A DNA stretch of 64,000 nucleotides, from the NCBI GenBank assembly GCA_964016885.1, contig OZ024743.1, positions 220,410,001 through 220,474,000 of the forward strand. The letters run 5' to 3'. A program made the position numbers and the translations under genes. Source of the DNA: Eledone cirrhosa. Its lineage: Eukaryota. Numbering within the stretch: the first letter of the stretch is position 1; the number at the start of each line of letters is the position of its first letter. The notes beneath the pieces are model-generated. The model saw only the letters and a program-made list of their open reading frames with translations, did no database searches and was not told where the DNA came from. Of the stretch, positions 33,256-64,000 are shown piece after piece.

Positions 33256-33415
33256 TTGGTTTGTTATGAAAAGGGTTTAAAAAATAAAAGTTCTTTAATA
33301 TAATCTTAATCTACAGCTAACTTTTCAAAAAGCAACTCTTTAAAATTACAAAGAATATACTTTAATAAGATATCTACGAGAAAACAAAGTGATAATATTA
33401 TTAATGCTAATCAAA

Positions 33416-33638
33416 GGGCGGTGGATTGGCAGTATCGGTAGAGGGTCTGACGCCATGTTTTGACGCGTAGACTTACGGCCCTTTATGATCTGAGTTCAAA
33501 TCCCGCCGAGGTTAACTTTGCCTTTCATCCTTACAGGGTCGATAAAATAAAGTACCAGTAACGCACTGGGTCGATTTAATCGACTTGCCCCTCCCCCAAA
33601 ATTGCTGGCCTTGTGCCTGTATAAGAAATGATTATTAA
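33416..33638 (+). mobile_element. Full-length tRNA-derived SINE (octopus-type, MetaSINE-like central domain)
   Basis: A box TGGCAGTATCGG, B box GAGTTCAAATCC, core GCCTTTCATCCTTACAGGGTCGATAAAATAAAGTACCAG, tail GCTGGCCTTGTGCC ending in ATTATT. Family name recalled from the literature, not searched. Confidence 0.88.
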
Positions 33639-33747
33639 TGCCAATCAGAACAACAGCAGCAGTAGCAGCAACAACAACAACAGCAACGGTAACAAAGAAT
33701 AACAACAAGTAGCACAACAACAATATTAAAACTTAAGCAGTAAATAA

Positions 33748-34490
33748 AATAATTGTTTCTGATTTAGGCACAAGGCTAGCAATTTTTTAGGGGCTGGTGG
33801 TGGTTAGTCGATTAAATCGATCGCAGTGCATTAGGGTTCTTTATTTTATCGATTCCGTAAAGATGAAAGCAAAGCTAACCTCGCCGGAATTTGAACTCAG
33901 ATCGTAAAGGGCCGTAACTATATGCCACAAAGCATGTTGTCCGACGCTCAAACGATACTGCAAATTCACCGCTCTTAAATAATGATTTCTAGTATAGGCA
34001 CAAGGCCAGTAATAATGGTTTCTGATTTAGGCGCAAGGCCACCACTTTTGGGGGGAGGGGAAAGTCGATTAAATCGACACCAGTACATTACTGGTACTTT
34101 ATTTTATCGACACCGTAAGGATGAAAGGCAAAGTTAACCTCGGCGGGATTTTAACTCAGAGCATAAAGGGCCGTAACTCTATGCTGCAAAGCATGGTGTC
34201 CGACTCTACCGATACACCTTAGCCACCGCCCTCACCACTCTTAAATAATAACCAAAAATAATTATTGTTTCTAACACTGGGACTAGGATAGCAATTATTA
34301 GTTTTTGAGCGGAGGAGTAAGTCGGTGATATCGATTCAAGTACTTAACTAGTACTTTACTTTATCGATCCACATAAGAATGAAAATGAAAGTTGATCTAG
34401 GTGGGATTTGAATTCAGAACATAAAGAGCCGAAACAAATATGACTAAGCATTTGTCCAACGCTCTACTGATTATCAATTCATCAGCTCTA
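33748..34490 (-). mobile_element. Three head-to-tail SINE copies (33,748-33,975; 33,978-34,231; 34,258-34,490)
   Basis: Each shows, in plus-strand order, tail, GTCGATTAAATCGA-like segment, TTTATCGA..GATGAAA core and B box; third copy more diverged. Confidence 0.85.
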
Positions 34491-39359: not shown

Positions 39360-39497
39360 TTGAGTTCAAATCCCGCCGAGGTTAGCTTTGCCGTTCATCC
39401 TTACGAGGTGGATAAAATAAAGTACCAGTCACGCACTGGGTCGATTTAATCCCCACAAAATTATTGGCCTTGTGCCTGAATCACAAACCATTGTTAT
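39360..39497 (+). mobile_element. 5'-truncated SINE
   Basis: Starts at B box TGAGTTCAAATCCC; core and tail GGCCTTGTGCC present. Confidence 0.8.
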
Positions 39498-39652
39498 GGT
39501 TGTGTTTGAAGCACAAGGTTCTTACATAGACTTATGATTGAATGATTTTAGATCGATATAATCACTTATCGTAGAATCAAAAGCGCTTCCAGACGATTTG
39601 ATATCAGAAAGGTTAAAACTTAACTACAGTCTGAGCAAATAAAAATTCACAA

Positions 39653-39722
<70 letters not shown>

Positions 39723-39994
39723 GCATTCTAGTCAATCTGATTTTACACCTGCCAGTCGTGATACCACTTCCTACCGGGAGGTTTCTCGAATATTTGAATG
39801 AAAGGTCCACCAATCCTATGATGAAAAGCGATGTGAATTTCATATTTTAATTTTAAATTTTCAAGTAATGGGGTTGATTTCATCAACTAAGTCCCTATTT
39901 TAAGTTCTAATTTCAAGACTTCAAATCTTACCGAGTTCAAGCTACAAAAAGATTGGAAATGACTCGTACTGAAATTAAACCGAATAACTTCGAT

Positions 39995-40610
39995 AATAAT
40001 GATTTCAAATTTAGGCACAAGGCCAACAACATATTGGGAAAGAGAAAGTTGATTAAATCGACTCCAGTGCATTACTGATACTTTATTTTATCGACGCAGT
40101 AAGGATGAAATACAAAGCTAACATCAGCGGGATTTGAACTCAGAATTTAAAGGACCGTAACTATATGCAACACACCATGTTGTCTGACGCTCTATTGACA
40201 CTGCCAATCCGCCACCCTCGTCAAGACGATGTATGGCGTCCGACTCTCTACCGATACTGCCTAATGGTAATTCCTTTGTTGCTGTTTGAACTCAGAATGT
40301 AAAGGGCCGTAACTATATGCAGCAAACCTTTTGTCTGACGTTCTACCGACACTGCCAATCCGCCACCCTTCATCCAGACGATAATAATTGTTTCTACTTT
40401 TGGCATAAGGCCAGCAATTGCCCCAGTGTATTACTGGTACTTTATTTTATCGACCCCGTAAGGATGAAAGGCAAAGATAACTTCGGCGGGATTTGAACTC
40501 AGACCATAAAGGGCCGTAAGTCTATGCGTCAAAGCATGGCGTCCGACCCTCTACCAATACTGCCACTCCATCCCCCTCCAGACGATAATAATGGTAATTC
40601 CTTTGTTGTT
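39995..40610 (-). mobile_element. SINE cluster: full copy 39,995-40,220, partial duplicate 40,235-40,380, short-tail copy 40,381-40,580
   Basis: Repeated TTTGAACTCAGA..GGCCGTAA..ACTGCCA head segments; core present in the first and last copies. Confidence 0.85.
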
Positions 40611-40859
40611 TTTGTAGTTGTCGTTTCTCTTATTTGGTATTTTGAAATATATTTTATGCTGTTTATTACTTTCAACATCTTTTACTATCGCACTTATTAG
40701 ACAACAAATTAAAGTACAATTCAAATGGAAAAAAATAATTTAAAATTCAATAATATAAAAAAAGTAATAAAACAACAGCTAAATTACACTAAGTAATAGA
40801 TACGTTAGTGTTACACTGAAGAGAACTTTGGAATGAATGACAAACTAGAAGACAATAGA

Positions 40860-40860
<1 letters not shown>

Positions 40861-40890
<30 letters not shown>

Positions 40891-40928
40891 CTTCTTCTTC
40901 TTCTTCTTCTTCTTCTTGATCATCATCG

Positions 40929-40960
<32 letters not shown>

Positions 40961-41033
40961 TTCTTCTTCTTCTTCTTCTTCTTCTTCTTCTTCTTCTTCT
41001 TCTTCTTCTTCTTCTTCTTCTTCTTCTTCTTCT
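40861..41033. repeat. (CTT)n-(CAT)n-(CTT)n microsatellite
   Basis: Read directly. Confidence 0.95.
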
Positions 41034-41224
41034 AAAGAGAGAGACAGGGCGATTGAGAAAAGGAGCGAGAGATAGAAAGAAGTTCAGTTAGAAATTTCCA
41101 ACTATTATTCTTAAATGCGAAAAGGTTTATCTAGTTGAAATCTTAAATGTTTTCTGGGCCCTAAAAGTAGTAATAATTACCCCGGCCCAAATAATAATTT
41201 CTTCATTGGCCACATGCAAGATAA

Positions 41225-41780
41225 TACAAAACAAAAAAAAGTGGGACAGTGGTGTTTACAAAGAAATCGAATAAACAACTAAAAATATAACAATGAAGAT
41301 TTCTCAATGGCGGGAGTACCACCCAGGGGTGACTTATGAATACCACAAATTCTAAACGACTCGACACACGAAGAGCACCGTACGAGGACACCGCTCTTCT
41401 CTCCAAACTGTCCAGTCTACAGGTGCATGGACAGAGTAGGCCCATCCTCGCTACATTCACCCATCTCTCAAGACTTCTTTCTCCATCCTCACCATTCTTT
41501 CCAAGTGGAACTTGAAAAAGTTGAAGCGGGCATGGCCGAAGAGGAAAGTGTCTGTCTTCAGTCCTTTCATTTCAGCCTCGTCTACTTCACATCTTTCGCT
41601 ATAAGCACCAGACAGAGGAAAACTGCCTGCCCTTCCCGACCAAAAGAAGGCGGTGGGGCGATCTTCAAGATGGATCCGTTCAGCATGCGTTCGTCTTGGT
41701 CCGTCAAAGATCAAATCGTGGTTTTGTTACCACACTGCGCCTCCACCACACGAGCCAATGGAAGAGCTTTCGTTTCTTCA
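41225..41780 (-). mobile_element. Decayed 3' fragment of a Tx1/L1-like LINE ORF2 plus 3' UTR
   Basis: Minus frames give ILKIAPPPSFGREGQAVFLCLVLIAK and KGLKTDTFLFG..NFFKFHLERMVRMEKEVL, resembling Tx1/L1 ORF2 C-termini; GC-richer island. Recognised from memory only. Confidence 0.45.
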
Positions 41781-41797
41781 TTTCTTAGAGCATGCGC

Positions 41798-42133
41798 GTT
41801 ACTGGTACTTTATTTTGTCGACCCTGTAAGAATGAAAGGCAAAGCTAACCTCGACGGGATTTGAACTCAGAACATAAAGGGTCATAACTCTATGCTGTGA
41901 AGCACGGTGTCCGACGCTCTACCGAAAATGCTAATAACAACAATAATTGTTTCTACTTTTGGCACAAGGCCAGCAATTATGCCAGTACATTACTGGTACT
42001 TTATTTTATCGAACCCGAAGGATGAAAGGCAAAGTTAACCTCGGCGGGATTTGAACTCAGACCATAAAGGGCCGTAACTCTTTGCTATAAAGCATGGCGT
42101 CAGACCCTCTACCGATACTGCCAATCCACCGCT
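41798..42133 (-). mobile_element. Two tandem SINE copies (second is the short-tail type matching the satellite)
   Basis: Core+B box at 41,800-41,930 and tail+core+head at 41,941-42,133. Confidence 0.85.
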
Positions 42134-42459
42134 AATAACAACAATAATAGCAAAAGTAGTCATCAATAACGCGTGAGTGATATTATTAGATATGTGATAG
42201 TGATGGAAATGATAATAGCTGGGACGTATTTAAACACACAGTCTTCTCATAAGGCTTCTATACCTTAAAAAGTACCAGCAACAGCTTTTTCGTAAACAAC
42301 ACTTGATGACATTTTATTTGCATCAGAATGAACAAACAAACATGCTACATGTCATTGTTTTAAGAAAAAAATGAGTTTTTTTTTTAAATTCTAAAATATC
42401 TCCTAAATCCCCCTTCCACAAACTTCCATAAATAATGACTTAAATTATAATTATAGTTA

Positions 42460-45626: not shown

Positions 45627-46161
<535 letters not shown>

Positions 46162-46167
46162 AAAGGA

Positions 46168-46329
46168 CGATTTGTTAAGCTTTCATCACGTTTATTGATT
46201 GGTGACGCGCGTTTCGCTATTGATCAGCTCAAGGTTCGACCTGTATCGATCTGGCCCGACTCTGGAAAAAAAGCTCGTCGGACCTCTGCTGTGGTAATGA
46301 TCATTACCACAGCAGAGGTCCGACGAGCT
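46168..46329 (-). mobile_element. Dispersed repeat fragment (probable PLE pseudo-LTR) ending in a perfect 58-bp palindrome
   Basis: Inverted homologue at 53,320-53,445; adjacent to (TA)n; minus strand has GAAACGCGCGTC then AATAAA; 46,272-46,329 is perfectly self-complementary. Confidence 0.55.
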
Positions 46330-46406
46330 AGATCGCTACAGATGTCTCCACTGCAATTGAGATAGACTTATATTGTTTTTATGCTAAGTAATATGTTTTC
46401 TTTTTA

Positions 46407-48221: not shown

Positions 48222-50808
48222 TAGTAATAATAATAAAATTGAAGACTAAAATCCAAAGAGGGCTCGATAAGGATAAATATATATCAAATATATAAGAACC
48301 GTAGAGCAAATATTTATTAAAATAACAGATTAAAGTTTAAGCAAAGAATCGCTGCTTTCACCCTTAACGGGATCTTCTGAAACTAACAAAGTCAATCTGT
48401 AAACGCAGAAGTGGATATTTCAAAAAAAGGTTGCAACCGGAGGAAGACAGGAAGACGATACTTTGGTTCGTGGTAACGTTCGCTGGCAAAGAACGGGAAA
48501 AAACGAATAATACGTCATTAATAGGAGCGGTGAAAAACAATTACGCGCAAAGACAGAACCACGTTTATGGTATAAAAGAGGTCGTAGACTAATGTTCTCT
48601 TAGGTGGTGCATAGAGACGTTCTCTGGCAATGAACGAAAAAACGAAGATAATAAGTCATATGTGGAGCGTGGAGAACAATAGCACGCAAAGACAAAATCA
48701 CGTAAATGGTATAGCAGAAGTCGTAGACTAAAATTCTAACTAGGAGACCAAATGAATCTCCGCTACAGAGTTAAGAACAAAGTAAATAAATACAATACAG
48801 AAGTAATAGAAATAAATAAATACATACACGCAAACAAATACGTACATACACAAGCATACGCAAAACCTTACCATAGGTATACAACCACGCACATATAAAT
48901 ATGTGTGTGTGTGTGTATGCTTGTGTACAAATAAATAAATAATTATATAAACGTATATAAGTGAGTAAATACGTATATAACAAGCGCACACACATACCTA
49001 CATATAAATACACGAATGTTCGGAGATGTAAGTCAACTAAAACAAGAAGTACACATATACACACACACACCATACGTACGAACCTGCATACTCACGCAGA
49101 CGCAAAACTCCCGTATACACATAGCCAAACCCTAAATACCAGAATATATAAAAATTATACGCCATAACAATCAAATATACGTACGAGAAGGTATACAACC
49201 TTCACAAAACATACAGGTAATATATACTTACCTATGCAAATAAGTAAAGGAATAAACAAAACATATACTTAGCTCCCACATCAGGACGTAAAATATCCAC
49301 GTATAGATCGTACTATCCGTTAGGGTATAACGTGGGGCTGTAATACAGGAAAGTTTTGTGCAATTTGTTTACAAGCCGAAATTGCCTCAGATTTTTTGTT
49401 TAAGATGTGGTCTGTGGCGTAGAGTATTTCCAGGGCCTCAGCGGCGCAGAGGTCACATGGTCTTTTATTTCCGTTATACGATCTAGCCCTAGCAAGGATC
49501 TCCCAGTGTAACTTATGTTGGGTGTGGTTGTCTTTTAGACTCCAGATATAAGCTGAAAGTGACGTCATATTCCTTCTTAGAGGGTAACGAAAAGAATGGG
49601 TATGCATGTAAAGACGCTGCTTGAAACTATTGGCGGTTAACCCTATGTAGGCCCTACGGGACGTGGGTGTTACAACCTTACATTTGTAGACAATGTTACT
49701 AGAGAGGCATTTCCCGGATAGGGGGCAATCAGCCCGATTCCTACAATTACAGTTAGTACTAACTACAGGGTTGCACGTGTTCCTACGGCTAGGTAGTTTA
49801 GCTAAATTTGAAGCTGTGATGTTATGTGCAAGGTTAGGAGTCGTAGAGTAAGAAATTTTAATAGTATTTCTATTAAAAATTTTACTATATTTATGTGTAG
49901 GGGGAAAATTGCTTCGTAATAAGGGAAAGAAAGATCTTAGCTAATGGTGTGGCCACCTCCATATTATATGGTGGGTTAAACCAACAAATGCGACGGGATC
50001 TATTTCTTCTAGGTCTATTTTCGTACTCTGTATATGCTACCTTATCGACAAATCCACTTCGAGCAAGAGCTTCATTGTAATAAGTGGAATGGTCGTTGAA
50101 AATGCGCTCGTTGGTGGAAAGACGGGAAAGCCTCAACGAAACGTTTCTTACCAGGTTCTTGGTTATGCTGGCGGGATGGTTGGAATGCTTACTTATGTAA
50201 TTAAGCGTATCATTCGGCTTTCTACACGGGTAATGCAAGCCATTCAATAAATTGAGGGTAACGTCGAGGTAATTAACGACCGAGAGTTGGCCTCAACCTG
50301 TATAGAGAGGTTGAAGCCTTTAAAGAAGGCTGTGAGTTCTTTTCTGAACCTGTCGCAAGCACGAGGTCCGCACTTAGTCATGGTCAAAAGACCATCGTCA
50401 TGGTACAAACCACCGCCCGCGTTGGGGAATTCGTCCTTGATAGAGAAAAGAAGGAAAAGGCCAATAAGATCAGTAACCTCCCCAGAGTCACTGGCGCCCA
50501 TACTCACGTCGAATGGGGAACTATTGGATTTTTTAATCCAAATAGAGTCGTCGAAATTAATCACCGACTTTCAGGCATTAAGGATGACATCAACTTCGAA
50601 ATCCTTAACCGCTGTGAGTGTTTTAGCGAAATTGATAGCTCTAAGGATAAGTGGTAAAGTGATGGAGGAGTAGTAATTGTTGATGTCGAATTGCAACGTT
50701 TTTTGAAATATCCAGTTCTGCGTATACAGATTGACTTTGTTAGTTTCAGAAGATCCAGTTAAGGGTGAAAGCAGCGATTCTTTGCTTAAACTTTAATCTG
50801 TTATTTTA

Positions 50809-50815
<7 letters not shown>
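48222..50815 (-). mobile_element. Penelope-like element with C-terminal GIY-YIG (probably Hydra clade), 5'-truncated, with inverted pseudo-LTR; inserted in (TA)n
   Basis: Minus frames: LQFDINNYYSSI, FDVSMG, GLYHDDGL, RKPND..YI.KHSNHP, WFNPPY, CNCRNRADCPLSGKCL, IVYKC...YIGLT..FKQR...H, CDLC..E..LNKKSE; frameshifted. 50,691-50,815 is the reverse complement of 48,313-48,436. Flanked by (TA)n on both sides. Confidence 0.88.
48334..48384 (-). ncRNA. Type I hammerhead ribozyme-like motif in PLE pseudo-LTR (non-canonical C3-A4-G5-A6 core)
   Basis: Sense RNA AGUUU-CAGAAGA-UCCC(GUUAA)GGGU-GAA-AGCAG(CGAUUCU)UUGCU-U-AAACU; stems I, II and III all pair when folded by hand. Confidence 0.6.
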
Positions 50816-50864
<49 letters not shown>

Positions 50865-50868
<4 letters not shown>

Positions 50869-51072
50869 ATAATAATAAATGTGAAGACTAAAATCCGAAG
50901 AGGGCTCCATACGGATAATATACATATGTAAACCGTAGACCAAATATTTATTAAAATAACAGATTAAAGTTGAAGCAAAGAATCGGTGCTTTCACCCTTA
51001 ACGGGATCTTCAGAAGATCCCGTTAAATGTGAAAGAAGCGATTATTTGCTTAAACTTTAATCTGTTATTTTA
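50865..51072. mobile_element. Extra PLE terminal fragment folded back on itself (direct copy of 48,222-48,377 plus inverted copy)
   Basis: AGTAATAATAATAAA..GAAGACTAAAATCC repeats 48,223 onward; centre TTAACGGGATCTTC-A-GAAGATCCCGTTAA is palindromic. Confidence 0.8.
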
Positions 51073-51115
51073 CTATATATATATATATACAATCTCTCTC
51101 TCTCTCTCTCTCTCC

Positions 51116-51433: not shown

Positions 51434-51653
51434 TTGGACCCCATTTGCTCATAATATTGAGAGATGTGGAGGGCAAAAGGGATGGAGACGATGGCCATGG
51501 GAGTCCGGCTCCTCTGTGTTCGGACCTGGTGTACGTGTGTGTGTACGTTTACTTCTATTCATTCGATATGATAGTATCTACGCTCCCTACTTCTTCTTAT
51601 ACTTCTACTTCTTACACTTTTGATGCTATGTATATCATTGTAACGATTGGCCA

Positions 51654-51847
51654 GGGCGGTGAATTGGCAGTATCGGTAGAGAGTCGGACGCCTTGCTTTC
51701 CAGCATAGTTACCTCCCTTTACAGTCTGAGTTCAAATCCCGTCGAGGTTAACTTTGCCTTTCATCCTTACGGGGTCGATAAAATAAAGTACCAGTAATGC
51801 ACTGGGGTAATTTCTGGCCTTGTGCCAAAAGTAGAAACAATTATAAT
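51654..51847 (+). mobile_element. Full-length short-tail SINE
   Basis: GGGCGGTGAATTGGCAGTATCGG (A box), GAGTTCAAATCC (B box), core, tail GGGGTAATTTCTGGCCTTGTGCCAAAAGTAGAAACAATTAT. Confidence 0.88.
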
Positions 51848-52349
51848 GCTATGTGTATCATCGTAACGATATATACATTATAAGACAAATCCAGTTCATC
51901 TCCTTTGGAGAATGCTTTCTGTAGTTGGCTTACTGTCAGAATATTGAAATTAATTCAAGAAGTTGAAATTGATTATTGTGGTTGTCAGAAGAATGGGTGA
52001 TAGAAATACAAACAAAATTATTAAATGAACTATAATAAAAAAAATGTCCTTGACATAGATAGATAGATATGTAGGTAGATATATAGATATCTAGACAGAT
52101 ATATAGATATGTAGGTAGGTAGATAGATGCAGAAAGAGTTACACATATGTAAATCAATGTGTGTGTGTTGTAGAAGCTAAGGTTTATTTTGTTGTCATAT
52201 CTAGCAAGACAGGTTACCACAACATGGCCCTTGCGTGTACGACAGACAGGCACACATGCAAATAGATAAAGGGCCAACTGCAGCCACTCTAACATATGTA
52301 TATGCACACACACACACACGCACACACACGCACACACACACACACACGC

Positions 52350-52977: not shown

Positions 52978-53319
52978 AAGAATTCGCAGATGGAAAGCCA
53001 CGACAATGCAGGTTTGGATGGAGAAAAATTTTAAACGCAAGAAACAGGGTTTATTTTTTACCCTTAATTTATTCATATATCCTGATATTTCAAGATTAAT
53101 ATCTCTTCTTCCGAGGAAAATAAAGGAACAATTCCAGTGTCCACTGTGGCTTGCATAACCATGCTGGCCGGAAGTGGTTTTATTATTTATTTATTTAATT
53201 TGCTGGCCTTGTGCCAAAAGTAGAAACAATTATTTATTTATTTAATTAATCTATTTATTTTTCTAAACAACTCTGTGCCCCCTTTGATCTGTTCAGGCCT
53301 TAATTTAAGACATAACACC

Positions 53320-53445
53320 AGAGGTCCGACGAGCTTTTGATTCCAGAGTCGGGCCAGATCGATACAGATCGAACCTTGAGCTAATCAATAGTGAAACGCG
53401 CGTCACTAATCAATAAACGTAATGAAGGCTTAACAAGTCGTCCTT
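53320..53445 (+). mobile_element. Second copy of the 46.2-kb repeat, inverted relative to it
   Basis: AGAGGTCCGACGAGCTTT..CCAGAGTCGGGCCAGATCGATACAG..GAAACGCGCGTCAC..AATAAACG is the reverse complement of ~46,175-46,288. Confidence 0.75.
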
Positions 53446-54109
53446 GTATTATTATATTTACACTCTGTTTAGCTCTACACCTCACAACTGACGTGAATCT
53501 AAACATCGAGTGCTCACCTGGGTAAAGCTGCAGTAACTTCACGTTACACTCCCTGGATATATATATATAAACACACGCATGTTGATGGGATTCCCAAAAG
53601 AATGAACCCATTGTAAAAATAAATGTTAAAATTATGATATGAATTATAATAATGTAAATAATGTAAATACAATTCAAATGAAAAAAGAAAAAAAAATTAA
53701 TTTAACAGTAATCTTGCTGGGACCTTTTCCTTATATTATTATTTACTAGCAGCAAAACCACCCTCCGGGTGGTTTTCTGCTAGCATGTGTAGTGTACATA
53801 TTTATATTATATGCAAATATACATGCATGTAGATATGATATCTATCTATACATATATATAAAACTGTAGTTGTCTGTGTGTGTGTGTCTTCATTTTTGAA
53901 AAGTCTATACAAATCCACATTTCTACTCCGATTGACTTCAAGCTTGCATTTATATATTCCTTGCGGTCTAAAGATATTAACTGCAGCTTTTGTTTTTCAA
54001 TTTTCTGTTGTTAAAGGGGTGTTAGGCGCTGGTTATCGATCTCCGCCCCGCCCTTATAATATCTGTCTGTATGTCTGGCTGTCTGCATTACGACATTATG
54101 ACAAACATT

Positions 54110-54318
54110 GATGACGCATTATGTTCGCTTTTTTCCGTTCGTTGCCAGGGAACGTCTTTACGAACCAAAGTATCGTCTTCCTGTTTTCCTTCGGTTGCAA
54201 CGTTTTTTTAAATATTTACTTCTGCGTTCACAGATTGATTTTTTTAGTTTCAGAAGATCCCGTTAAGGGTGAAAGCAGCGATTCTTTTCTTAAACTTTAA
54301 TCCGTTATTTTAATATAT
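54110..54318 (+). mobile_element. Solo pseudo-LTR fragment of the 48-51 kb PLE, with hammerhead-like motif at 54,246-54,296
   Basis: Reverse complement of ~48,315-48,518 (CGAACCAAAGTATCGTCTTCCTGT..GTTGCAAC..CAGAAGATCCCGTTAAGGGTGAAAGCAGCG). Confidence 0.82.
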
Positions 54319-54899
54319 AATATAAGCGAGGCAAGCCAGCCCAGTTGCCACTTCTTGCCAATAAACATTAACGTTTTGTGCGGCATTCATCTAACTGTAG
54401 ACAAACAAATATCAACTAAACGGAGCGTTGACAAGAACGATGGCGAATGAATCTTCGAGGTAAGCAGTTTCTTCCCGAGCTGTTAGTTCACGCGGGATTC
54501 TCTGCTACATCTTTTCGTAATAATACCGAACAACGTACTGCTGGTCACTCCTTCCTCCAAAAGCCGTACAAAGCGGACATGTGCATCGGGCAGATGGATC
54601 TGGTGCAAATCTACACCAGGCCTACGCGAGAAATTCGCAAGGAACTGCACCGACAGGGATAGAGAGAAAGAGTAACTTAGTGGAAAGTGTGCGAATGAAC
54701 TTTTGAGGAAACAGAGGAGTATGAAAAGAAGGGGTTCAACAATATTTCTATGAACAATGCACGTAGACAGCTAAACTGTTCTTTCAACTTCTTAATTTTC
54801 TCCAAATAAAACAAGTTTCCTGTCGGTATATTTTCGTGAGTTTTTAACAGGCACTCACAAATAAACGTTTCTCAATGGAGGTACTATTACCAATGTTCT

Positions 54900-58276: not shown

Positions 58277-60042
58277 AATATCTTTAAGTCGTTTGGAAGC
58301 CTCGACAATGCAAATAGGTAAATCTCCGGGTAACAAGGTCCGGTGGTGGAGAGAGAGATGTAAGTGGGTGTACGTTGAGATGCGTGGTGTGTATAAGATG
58401 TGTGAGATGTGTAGAATGAAGGGAAGAGTATAAAGGATAAAAATAAAAATAACAACACAAGAGAGAGTTACCTTGGGAGAGATTTAATAGTCCCTATATA
58501 TTTCGGATTCACATCCATCAACTGGGGGATTTTTTTCCGGGGTGGGGGAAAAGGTTGTCTGTCGGACAAGTCCGGAATGCGTCTTTCGCTGTTTGTTGTT
58601 TTGAATATCTGAGGTATTCGGCAGAGCGCGCGTGCGCGTGAAATGGGGTCGGTCGTACAGAGGTCAGCGGCCGAATGAGGGAGTGGGATGGCGCTAGCTG
58701 TCAGTCCATTCTCTGCCTGTTTGTTAAATGTTACTGGGTGTGTGTGTGCGTGTGTTGTTGTCTCGCTTGAGTGTGTGTGTGTGTGTGTGTGTTGTTGCCT
58801 TGTTCATCTGTATTGGCAGTGTAGTATGTTCGTATGGTGAAATGCTACTGTGTGTGCGTGTGTGTGTGTAGTTGTCTCGTTTGCGTGTGTGTGTGTATGC
58901 GTGTGTTGTGTGTTGTTGCATCGCTTGTTAACTTAAACCAGCCATTTCATTTCGCTTCTCTCTGATCGGTTGTTTATTTGCGGTTGCAGTCGTTTGATAA
59001 AAAGCGCTTCCTTGATACGTAACGTGCCGACGTTTCTTTCAGTCGCTAGAATTGTGACAATGGGCCTTCCGTCTTTGTTTCCGCATTTGTCTATGTGTTT
59101 CCGGAAAGACGAGGCCTGGTTTTAGTGTGTTCCTTGATCCGGATGTGCAAAGGTCGAATTGTGCTACCTATGTAGTATTGGTTGCACCTGTCACATTCTA
59201 TCTTATACACGACGTATGTGCGTAGGCAACAGTTAGCATGGCGTATCGGGCAGTCTCTGAGGGAGCATGCGTCAGTAGATTTTTCGCGTTTCCTGGAGAG
59301 GCCTCTTCGCAGGGAGGGGCCCGAGTGGGCCAGGTGGATGTCGAGGCCCTCCCTCCGTATAGCCTTGCGGATAGCGTTGGTGGTTTTCTCGCCCAGGTGT
59401 GGCATTTTAAGGAAGCACTTGCCTTGGGTGCTTCTCTGTCTCTTGCGTCTGGTGTCTCCTATTCTGTCTGTGATCGAGGTAGGGTACCCGTTCGTCTCCA
59501 GCTCCTCGAGGAATCGCTTGGTATGAGTGACACCACTCGCGGGATCGCTGCATCTGTTTTTGATTCGCGCGATCTCGTTTGTGATGTATCCTCTTTTGGC
59601 ACTGTTAGGGAGGGCGGACTTGTAATGAACGAATAGGTCCCTGCAGGCTGCCTTTCTGTAGAAGTTGCAGTGGATCCCTCCTTGTTCCGTGATGTTGATT
59701 CGGAAGTCGAGGAGGGCAAGTGACCCGTCTTCGTTGGGGTGTTCAACACTGAAGTCAATGTTCTCGTCCGTGTTGTTGAACGTCTCATAGATTCTGTTCG
59801 CCGTGTCTTGGAAAGATGTGAGGATGAGGATATCGTCCACGTATCTTGAGAAAAAGGCTACGGCGTTGGGGTGGCAGGCGTTGAGTGCCTTGCGTTCGAG
59901 GTTGTCCATGTAGGAGATCGCTAGCACACCTGATAGGCTTGATCCCATGGGCAATCCCGAGGTTTGTTGGTATATTTGGTCAAGGAATCCGAAGTAAGTG
60001 TTGTCGACGACGATGGATAGGAGTTGGTGGATGTCAGTGGTG
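58277..60042 (-). mobile_element. Second Penelope-like element (canonical RT + C-terminal GIY-YIG), 5'-truncated, nested in the Helitron
   Basis: ORF within 59,091-60,042: QQTSGLPMGSSLS, SRYVDDIL, LLDF, FYRK, VVYKIECDRCNQYYIGST.RPL..RIKEH; flanked by duplicated TAAATA (58,271-58,276 and 60,043-60,048). Confidence 0.9.
58492..58528 (-). ncRNA. Degenerate minimal hammerhead-like motif in the second PLE's terminus
   Basis: Sense CCC-CAGUUGA-U-GGAU(GUGA)AUCC-GAAA-UAUAUA-GGG: stems I and II and a palindromic stem III fit; core differs from CUGAUGA at two positions. Confidence 0.45.
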
Positions 60043-60845
60043 TAAATATTTTGGGTAATTTTTCCCACATTTTGCATCATTCATACATGGACATTGCGGA
60101 TTTAATAAACCACATGGACCATGGAGCTTTTGTGTAGTGACAATATTATAAACATCAGGATCATTAATTGGATCAGGAATTTCTGCCGAGATTGATGTAT
60201 CTAATTGATTTAGATAAATTGTTTGCTCTAAACAAAGTAAGATGTGAGCATGTGGTAAGCCTCTTTTCTACCATTCTACTGTATATAGGTAGGCCTTTGT
60301 TTTGCTAAATATTCCATTATCAATCAATATTGTCATCATTTTGTTTAACCTTTGCTTGAAAACTCTTGTAATTATGGCGTCCCTATCTTCGGGATTTTGG
60401 CTTTTATATAGGTTCTCCATGGTCTAATTCCATTTAGGTTTGCAAGTGAATGTTATAAATAAACCAGGCTTACCGTATTCTCTCACATAACATATTGCAT
60501 CTTGAGTTCTTTCCTTCCAATATCTTGGACTTCAACAAAAGTAGAAGGTAAAATTACAGCTCTACCTAATTCTTATGCATTGAATACTCCTTCATTATTT
60601 AGATAATCTTTTAAAAACGAATACTCTTCTACCCTTAGCTTGGTTTGCTGCTGTTTAATGTACAATAAGCGTTCAAACTCAAATTTGGCATATATATCAA
60701 CTAAATACATTTGGAACAATCATTTACATCTTACAATTTGATTGCAAGTATTTCTTAGTTGTAACTGATATACATAATATTGCCTGCATGTAACGTTCTT
60801 ATTTGGGACTGTTTGATTTGTATTTGGGTTGTATAAATCTAAATC
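60043..60845 (-). pseudogene. Helitron Rep (HUH initiator) region, decayed
   Basis: Minus frames: LFQMYLVDIYAKFEFERL, VILPSTF, SPRYW, DAICYVREYGKPGLFITFTC.PKW, ISAEIPDP, HGPCG..CPCM..KCGKNYPK. Confidence 0.88.
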
Positions 60846-62900: not shown

Positions 62901-63863
62901 CATATTGTGACTGTCCATTTTTATCATTTTTTTTTCTTCGTATGGATGGCAGAATGGTTAGCGTGCTGAATACTTAGTGATATTTAGCTTTTCCTTCTTC
63001 TGCTGTTGATAAGATAAAATACCTGTAAATTACATGCTATAGCTGTTACCATGAGACGAGGAAGTTATTACTTTAAACATAATGAAATTTCATTCAATTG
63101 AATACATATGAGCAAACAGTTTAGTAGTTCTTAACAGTCATGTCTCTGTACAAGAAACAACTTTTAGATTCATTCCCTCATATACACACATAATATGCAC
63201 CATGCTCGAACACAAAAGAACAAAACTTCCACTGTCACTACCCCCGTTTCTCCCCGAGGTCGATATCACCGACTTTCTCATCCACACAAATTGCTGGCCT
63301 TGTACTTAAATTAGGAATCCTTTGTTTTTTTCTTCTTTTTTTCTACTTTCATGAATAATAGTTATTGATGTGAAAGTATTCTTGTAAGATGAACGAAAAC
63401 AGAGGATAGACCGGAAATCTACTTTCGGACATTTGCTAATTATATTTCCTTTATCTCTGGTTACTGAAGTAAACTTATTGCTAGCTATTGACTATCTCCT
63501 AAATAGATCTCCAATGTTTTTCTCAGTATTTTGAAATGTTAACAATGCTTGTATCATTATTTTATTTTAATATATTTTTAAAACGTAGAAATTTCGCAAT
63601 GTTATTTCAAGCCCCTCCCCGACTCTATTTATCACATTCAACGAACACAATCAATTCTTGTTTTAGTTTTAATTCTTTTTTTTTTGGGCAAGAATTGTGA
63701 TGCTCTTTATTTGTTAGATTAGAAAATGTGTTTGTCATTGGTTAGAAAAAAAGACCAAACGTATTGCGTTTATAAAAGCGTTATGTATGTTGTTTAAGTT
63801 GTCGTATCCTCCCAAACAATGCAGCAGTGCGGGTAATATTTTCATTATATTTTTGTCAGCACA

Positions 63864-64000
63864 AGGGCGGTGGATTGGCAGAATCAGTAGAGCGTCAGAC
63901 AACATGCTTAGTGGCATAAAGTTACGGCCCTTTACATTCTGAATTCAAATCCCACCGATGTTAGCTTTGCCCTTCATCCTTTAGAGGTCGATAAAATAAA
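63864..64000 (+). mobile_element. SINE copy truncated by window end
   Basis: GGGCGGTGGATTGGCAGAATCAG head, GAATTCAAATCCC B box, CTTCATCCTT..GGTCGATAAAATAAA core. Confidence 0.85.

Follow-up and report, generated by a model that had tools for sequence, protein, structure and literature searches.

The 64,000-nucleotide stretch of Eledone cirrhosa DNA analysed here (the window) contains, on its minus strand, a Penelope-like element (PLE) that runs from 50,690 to 48,310 (Table 1). This main copy is bordered by (TA)n on both sides, has an 80-nt tail, and carries an inverted piece of pseudo-LTR (pLTR) at its truncated 5' end. Its open reading frame (ORF) was recognized as that of an EN+ PLE by motif, with a YRDDG-type reverse transcriptase (RT) and a VY...YIG endonuclease, and the endonuclease portion contains a CxCX5C linker and a CxxC motif; a Pfam search with this Hydra-type ORF returned no match. 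Full-length natural copies elsewhere in the genome have a unit of ~3.26 kb, against a published length of under ~3 kb for the Hydra clade, and an ORF with the DKT, CxCX5C, CxxC, and CxH motifs. In the natural copies L091 and L103, these read DKT, CNCRNRADC, CDLC, and CKH, with RWR in the place where the Hydra clade has RWK. The family also has partial tandem or inverted pLTRs, a one-sided tail, and a preference for insertion into (TA)n, and where copies stand in tandem, the tail serves as 5' UTR for the unit that follows, upstream of the ATG. By motif, and with the published proteins compared by eye, the element matches the Hydra clade of PLEs.

Table 1. Features of the PLE insertions and hammerhead-like motifs in the window
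Feature	Position	Strand	Remarks
80-nt tail	48,230-48,309	minus	One end of insertions; joins (TA)n
3' UTR/pseudo-LTR	48,310-49,312	minus	Usual 3' end at 48,310
Distal stem Ib, 3' strand	48,325-48,333	minus	
Type I hammerhead-like motif	48,334-48,384	minus	Stem Ia 5 bp, stem II 3 bp, stem III 5 bp
Core position 4, A (canonical U)	48,378	minus	Family state
Distal stem Ib, 5' strand	48,392-48,400	minus	9 bp, beyond a 7-nt bulge
5'-truncated, frameshifted ORF	49,313-50,690	minus	C-terminal half of RT and Hydra-type GIY-YIG endonuclease
Inverted, 5'-truncated pLTR piece	50,691-50,816	plus	Same insertion as main copy; ends in (TA)n
Palindromic two-arm mini-insertion	50,872-51,080	minus (50,872-51,015) and plus (51,009-51,080)	Arms joined at TTC(A/T)GAA
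Minimal hammerhead of a separate PLE family	53,080-53,117	minus	Core CGGAAGA (G4); independent comparison
Solitary, more diverged pLTR fragment	54,107-54,319	plus	89% to main copy; CAGAAGA at 54,251

The 3' UTR of the main copy contains a 140-nt internal duplication (48,476-48,598 and 48,617-48,737) and, 29 nt ahead of the element's usual 3' end, a motif that an initial annotation, made from the letters alone, had described as a hammerhead ribozyme in a PLE pLTR; the anatomy of the element bears out this location. A non-LTR retrozyme, in which non-coding units are arranged in tandem and each carries a hammerhead, was rejected, as the motif sits in a protein-coding element. Several other repeats share the window. 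Positions 1-24,246 consist of a 56-bp satellite (433 copies, 95% matches) whose unit resembles a short dispersed repeat at 51,650-51,850; a dispersed SINE-like repeat of 140-290 bp has many copies, found at 33,400-34,470, 39,360-42,150, 51,650-51,850, and 63,860-64,000. A 57-bp near-perfect palindrome (46,273-46,329) lies beside a repeat common to 46,147-46,330 and 53,315-53,460. A fragment of a different PLE occupies 59,091-60,080 on the minus strand, with an RVT_1 match (E 4.6e-9) and a weak GIY-YIG match, and a candidate canonical CUGACGA...GAAA motif at 28,770-28,730 on the minus strand ends the remnant of a GC-rich RT-like element.

Read 5' to 3' on the minus strand from 48,384 to 48,334, the motif consists of the stem I strand AGUUU, the core CAGAAGA, an extra U (U9a), stem II (CCC/GGG) closed by the loop GUUAA, a further U followed by GAA, stem III (AGCAG/UUGCU) with a 7-nt loop, a U at H17, and the strand AAACU that closes stem I. 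This reproduces in full the type I hammerhead drawn in the initial annotation, and the cleavage predicted there near 48,339 is placed here, again by prediction, between 48,339 and 48,338. Compared with the canonical core C3 U4 G5 A6 N7 G8 A9, only position 4 is mismatched, with an A, and G12 A13 A14, the A15.1-U16.1 pair, and H17 are all present. At the R10.1-Y11.1 site, a U and a U flank the C-G stem II in the Hydra-family motif; such a U10.1-U11.1 mismatch is described as a tolerated natural variant in the sections consulted of PMC3088659. Three helices (5, 3, and 5 bp) surround the core, which is open at stem I, and stem I extends beyond the limits first assigned to it: after a bulge of 7-8 nt, 48,400-48,392 pairs with 48,333-48,325 to form a distal stem (stem Ib) of 9-10 bp. 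A relaxed type I descriptor gave 4 matches in 32,001-64,000, compared with 0.13 on average over 200 simulations under an order-1 Markov model, and the hammerhead motifs are thus not due to chance. The anatomy is that of a type I hammerhead, yet the motif lacks the CUGA that defines membership.

It had been suggested that strict motif searches would miss this variant. Descriptors based on CUGANGA, such as those given in the main text of PMC8557442, would indeed do so. The Rfam hammerhead covariance models also gave no match to an A4 copy, but a naturally occurring U4 copy from this family was missed as well, and the Rfam miss is therefore not caused by A4.

The CAGAAGA core was also noted initially at 50,747, 51,011, and 54,251 on the plus strand, and it is present at all three. 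However, each of these copies is damaged (5/2/5, 3/1/4, and 5/3/4 pairs in stems I/II/III, respectively), and since all belong to one family, the window alone is unable to prove a family state. In the copy at 50,747, one stem II pair is broken, and both hammerhead copies of the two-arm mini-insertion are without a full stem I. The copy at 51,011 stems from an inversion whose junction falls on the palindrome TTC(A/T)GAA, and its minus strand reads a canonical CUGAAGA with 2/5 stem I pairs; this CUGAAGA, at 51,013 on the minus strand, was rejected as a genuine canonical core and is a by-product of the junction. As seen at 51,000-51,025, inversion junctions of the family often fall on this odd palindrome and recreate CUGAAGA on one strand, and a template switch at TTC(A/T)GAA is a possible route for a U/A flip.

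Genome-wide counts of exact 29-mers in the 3.0-Gb genome settled the state of position 4. Of 18,602 matches, 18,411 carry A4, 74 carry U4, and 117 carry C or G, which bears out the claim of the initial annotation that A4 is the family state and leads us to reject decay or an artefact of the window. A hidden canonical master lineage was rejected as well, as the 74 U4 copies represent mutation background; 12 of the 30 U4 copies examined are derived from junctions. Among 100 listed copies with a long loop, 7 have U at position 4, and by eye only one of these 7, the decayed L177, has genuine upstream sequence. Eight of 24 listed public runs were covered. In seven public contig sets, of which only X12 and X13 have high depth, no letter other than A was found at the position equivalent to 48,378, and the count from the raw reads of X24 was 0. 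As the public sequences are near-identical to the family, with several perhaps coming from trace DNA, they were not counted as conservation across species.

The young family is homogeneous, with copies ~4% from their consensus, so that copy number alone proves nothing. A4 is nonetheless old. A search seeded with the upstream UTR of an old copy (260 nt), in which the motif itself was not used, yielded 30 loci, of which 3 had no module and 2 had lost the core by deletion; all 25 remaining copies have A4. Old-type copies number 130, and in the 100 of them that were listed, A occupies position 4 in 94, G in 4, C in 2, and U in none, and N7 is A in 69, U in 27, and G in 4. The old lineages, whose copies are 11-13% from their own consensus, have an ORF that is 71-75% identical to that of the window copy and cannot be aligned with it upstream of the last 120 nt. 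At least about ten other repeat families with canonical CUGANGA hammerheads, several of which show stem covariation, were seen by eye in the flanks of loci L001-L250. U4 is therefore likely to be the ancestral state.

To follow the motif after A4 became fixed, we compared three consensuses, one for the young lineage and one for each of two old lineages. Columns that changed across the three number 0/12 in the unpaired core, 1/26 in the stems, 20/68 in the flanks, and 8/14 in N7 and the loops; Fisher tests gave p 0.03 for core versus flank and p 0.002 for core versus N7 and loops, in a comparison of only three related consensuses in which lineage C was assigned partly by N7. The sole stem change is a CpG-type C to U. 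Covariation analysis over the family copies found one compensatory pair, and this lies in distal stem Ib, which the initial annotation had missed: the outer pair of this stem in the old copies is C-G in 7/33 and U-A in 15/33 (p 0.004 for the 27 copies of the 2x2 table), probably reflecting a single compensatory event. In the young lineage, the same outer pair is unpaired, with pairing in 4/166 copies. In an alignment of 35 sequences, the extended hammerhead exceeded pair shuffles (1-7 of 500), an excess that relatedness alone can yield on some measures. These data bear on the idea that the ribozyme died in the founder and then hitch-hiked on a burst of copying, for which the homogeneity of the young family leaves room. 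We regard such a neutral relic as very improbable, since the older lineages retain an intact motif while flanks and loops drift.

A second core-changed hammerhead in the window, with G at position 4, belongs to a separate PLE family. G is its family state: among 100 listed of its 181 exact pattern matches, position 4 is G in 79, A in 17, C in 2, and U in 2, and the 17 copies with A, together with ten C3U rows, fit CpG decay. A Poseidon-like RT and a GIY-YIG domain lie upstream of the motif in L363, L364, L365, and L369 (from loci L351-L376), and one tandem array of 46-bp units was observed on C20. As this family is unrelated to the A4 family, both core-changed families found here have altered the same position, with the remainder of the core retained. 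Together, the fixed core, the freedom of N7 and the loops, and the second family altered at the same position favour a residual function over a dead relic. More speculatively, position 4 may be an evolvable rheostat in PLEs, with at least two unrelated clades, a U4A Hydra family and a U4G Poseidon-like family, each having fixed a purine while staying slow or protein-activated ribozymes. If this is true, a class of natural CRGA-core hammerheads has been overlooked by every CUGA-based search.

Folding predictions give a less favourable picture. For the 51-mer, the hammerhead has an energy of -5.5 kcal/mol, compared with -8.8 kcal/mol for the minimum-energy fold, and the probability of stem I is 0.07 at 37°C; the hammerhead lies above the predicted minimum by 3.3 kcal/mol in the 51-mer and by 5.8 kcal/mol in a 130-mer. 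A z score of +0.83 was obtained for the motif. A hammerhead that is not the minimum-energy fold reduces our confidence in fast folding, but energies of the nearest-neighbour kind omit the tertiary core. A4 is base-paired in both competing predicted folds, in which either an upstream UCUG pairs with C3-A4-G5-A6 or UUUCA pairs with UGAAA. It is conceivable that A4 was selected for stabilizing such an "off" fold and that the motif is a two-state switch: both folds are predicted minima with A4 included, the upstream U that faces A4 is the same in 34/34 rows, and the hairpin is 91% paired. However, the upstream hairpin does not exceed shuffles (253-452 of 500), and in the absence of covariation we rejected it as a selected switch. 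In addition, the N7 pair is not retained, natural U4 copies are merely 0.3-2.7 kcal/mol nearer to the hammerhead fold, and the G4 of the second family sits in a different context, so that a switch of this kind seems highly unlikely.

Traces of cutting were sought in the ends of genomic copies. Raw numbers, not normalized to anchor counts, are 167 junctions at the predicted cut and 137 at a control position lying 4 nt upstream, and the 30 that were inspected resemble the usual junctions made by inversions, deletions, or microsatellites. Ninety full-length copies were scored, taken from the top of 485 matches and lying exclusively on C1: 1/90 starts at the cut, 48/90 read through it, and 41/90 end before it. 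Neither the junction counts nor these 90 copies thus contain a pile-up of ends at the predicted cut, which suggests that templates are mostly uncut or re-ligated; ligated circles would also read through the cut site. Uncut templates have likewise been reported for a canonical Poseidon hammerhead, and hence this copy-end test, which covered the A4 family only, cannot grade activity. By eye, many short and inverted copies among L031-L090 have the first nucleotide of stem Ia (element position 2307) as their precise start.

One reading of the motif is that A4 is compensated by its context, with an extended, bulged stem I docking on loop II and with U9a/U11a, and that activity is similar to that of canonical PLE hammerheads. 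The stable stem III of 5-6 bp and the distal stem of 9-10 bp would suit a monomer, the family is very successful, and other natural core variants proved functional, as described in the available part of PMC10085705. We nevertheless think this improbable, as copy ends do not pile up at the cut, competing folds dominate in silico, and a comprehensive scan, in the portion of PMC9901934 that was consulted, reports no double mutant that rescued changes in the CUGA turn.

We consider the motif to be the 3' pLTR hammerhead of an abundant Hydra-clade PLE and, with confidence that is evenly balanced, a slowed-down and probably protein-assisted self-cleaving ribozyme. A4 would weaken the uridine turn and thus leave most transcripts uncut. 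Reverse transcription would begin in the tail, ~110 nt downstream of the cut site, and fast cutting would consequently strip the priming end from the template, whereas slow cutting would preserve templates. The cut would probably be aided by the element's own protein, by analogy with the Anolis Poseidon element, and occasional slow cutting would justify the retention of G5, A6, G8, A9, G12, A13, and A14. A further family of this genome, with a canonical core and a closed stem III of 4 bp, makes the need for a brake less convincing. In the classic minimal-hammerhead mutagenesis of Ruffner in 1990, substitutions of U4 reportedly ranked with the mildest changes to the core. A contact exists between U4 and the A6-N7 phosphate (PMC3088659), and mutants in the CUGA turn, the C3-G8 swap excepted, had low activity with no rescue, according to the sections consulted of PMC9901934. 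Conversely, natural variants of the core with a crippled appearance in engineered constructs are able to cleave, as the available text of PMC10085705 and PMC3088659 describes.

The strongest competitor to a slowed ribozyme is a catalytically dead one whose fold and core are retained as an element that serves binding or folding, either for the RT-endonuclease protein or in the handling of 3' ends. We rate it as possible but rather unlikely. It would account for templates that are mostly uncut and for the weakness of CUGA-turn mutants (PMC9901934), and the frequent start of copies at the first base of stem I noted above suggests that the RT or its protein senses structure. The Anolis PLE hammerhead is protein-assisted and dispensable for insertion in vitro, catalytic mutants having left insertion unaffected (PMC11167929, in the part consulted), and Naiads are reported to spread without canonical hammerheads (PMC8557442, main text). 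On the other hand, the other catalytic positions are all fixed while N7 varied, and both core-changed families altered position 4 and not G5, G8, or G12, which is not what a dead fold predicts. The same conservation pattern as with a slow ribozyme would nonetheless arise if a protein recognized the folded core, and an attenuated ribozyme and a dead protein handle cannot be separated from sequence.

Hammerhead descriptors take U4 to be invariant. A very successful element in which U4A was fixed long ago and the rest of the core was retained is a natural experiment. If the motif is active, the known tolerance of the core is wider than assumed, and animal genomes contain more ribozymes than have been counted.

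Earlier work has described PLE hammerheads, elements of the Hydra clade, and natural variants of the core (PMC4209133, PMC6765202, PMC7151607, PMC6155905, and bioRxiv 2026.07.22.740005, each as far as the accessible text goes). No natural U4A or U4G hammerhead was found in the literature, which was searched as text, and an earlier description is possible; the supplement text of PMC4209133 (one of two files), PMC3088659, and PMC8557442 likewise contains no natural U4 variant. The closest known system is the Hydra-clade PLEs of Craig et al. 2021 (PMC8557442), which, in the parts consulted, share with the present family a single ORF with the DKT, CxCX5C linker, CxxC, and CxH motifs, insertion into (TA)n, tandem or inverted pLTRs with a tail, and a type I hammerhead near the 3' end. 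Identity with the published Hydra-1_Obim was rejected, as the motifs of the family are absent from the supplement of that paper. The Hydra hammerheads tabulated in its file S2 share a U following A9 and another preceding GAA in 14/26 rows, but all 26 rows have a CUGA core, whereas the family described here has CAGA. Furthermore, stem III of these hammerheads has 3-4 bp, is mostly palindromic, and has a loop of 1-3 nt, in contrast to a stem III of 5-6 bp with a loop of 5-7 nt, plus the distal stem Ib, in our family.

Similar comparisons can be made with the minimal PLE hammerheads of Cervera and De la Pena 2014 (PMC4209133), which share the location in pLTRs, an extra residue that sits between position 9 and position 10.1, and a low expected activity for which cofactors were proposed to be necessary. 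The core change reported in the accessible part of that work is a covariation of C3-G8 to U3-A8, with no change of U4, and the A4 motif differs further in not being minimal and in being without G10.1-C11.1. The natural variants of Perreault et al. 2011 (PMC3088659) also combine rare core changes (A6C, A6a, and U15.1-A16.1) with low but real activity; however, the text consulted has no U4 substitution, and the variants are single sequences and not the fixed state of a family of 18,000 copies. Finally, the Poseidon PAc element of Anolis (PMC11167929, in the sections consulted) shares an internal start of reverse transcription at the tail, a mainly uncut RNA template, and no RNA ends at the cut site, a feature read here from genomic copies. 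The PAc hammerhead has a canonical core, and for this Anolis element protein-assisted cleavage has been demonstrated.
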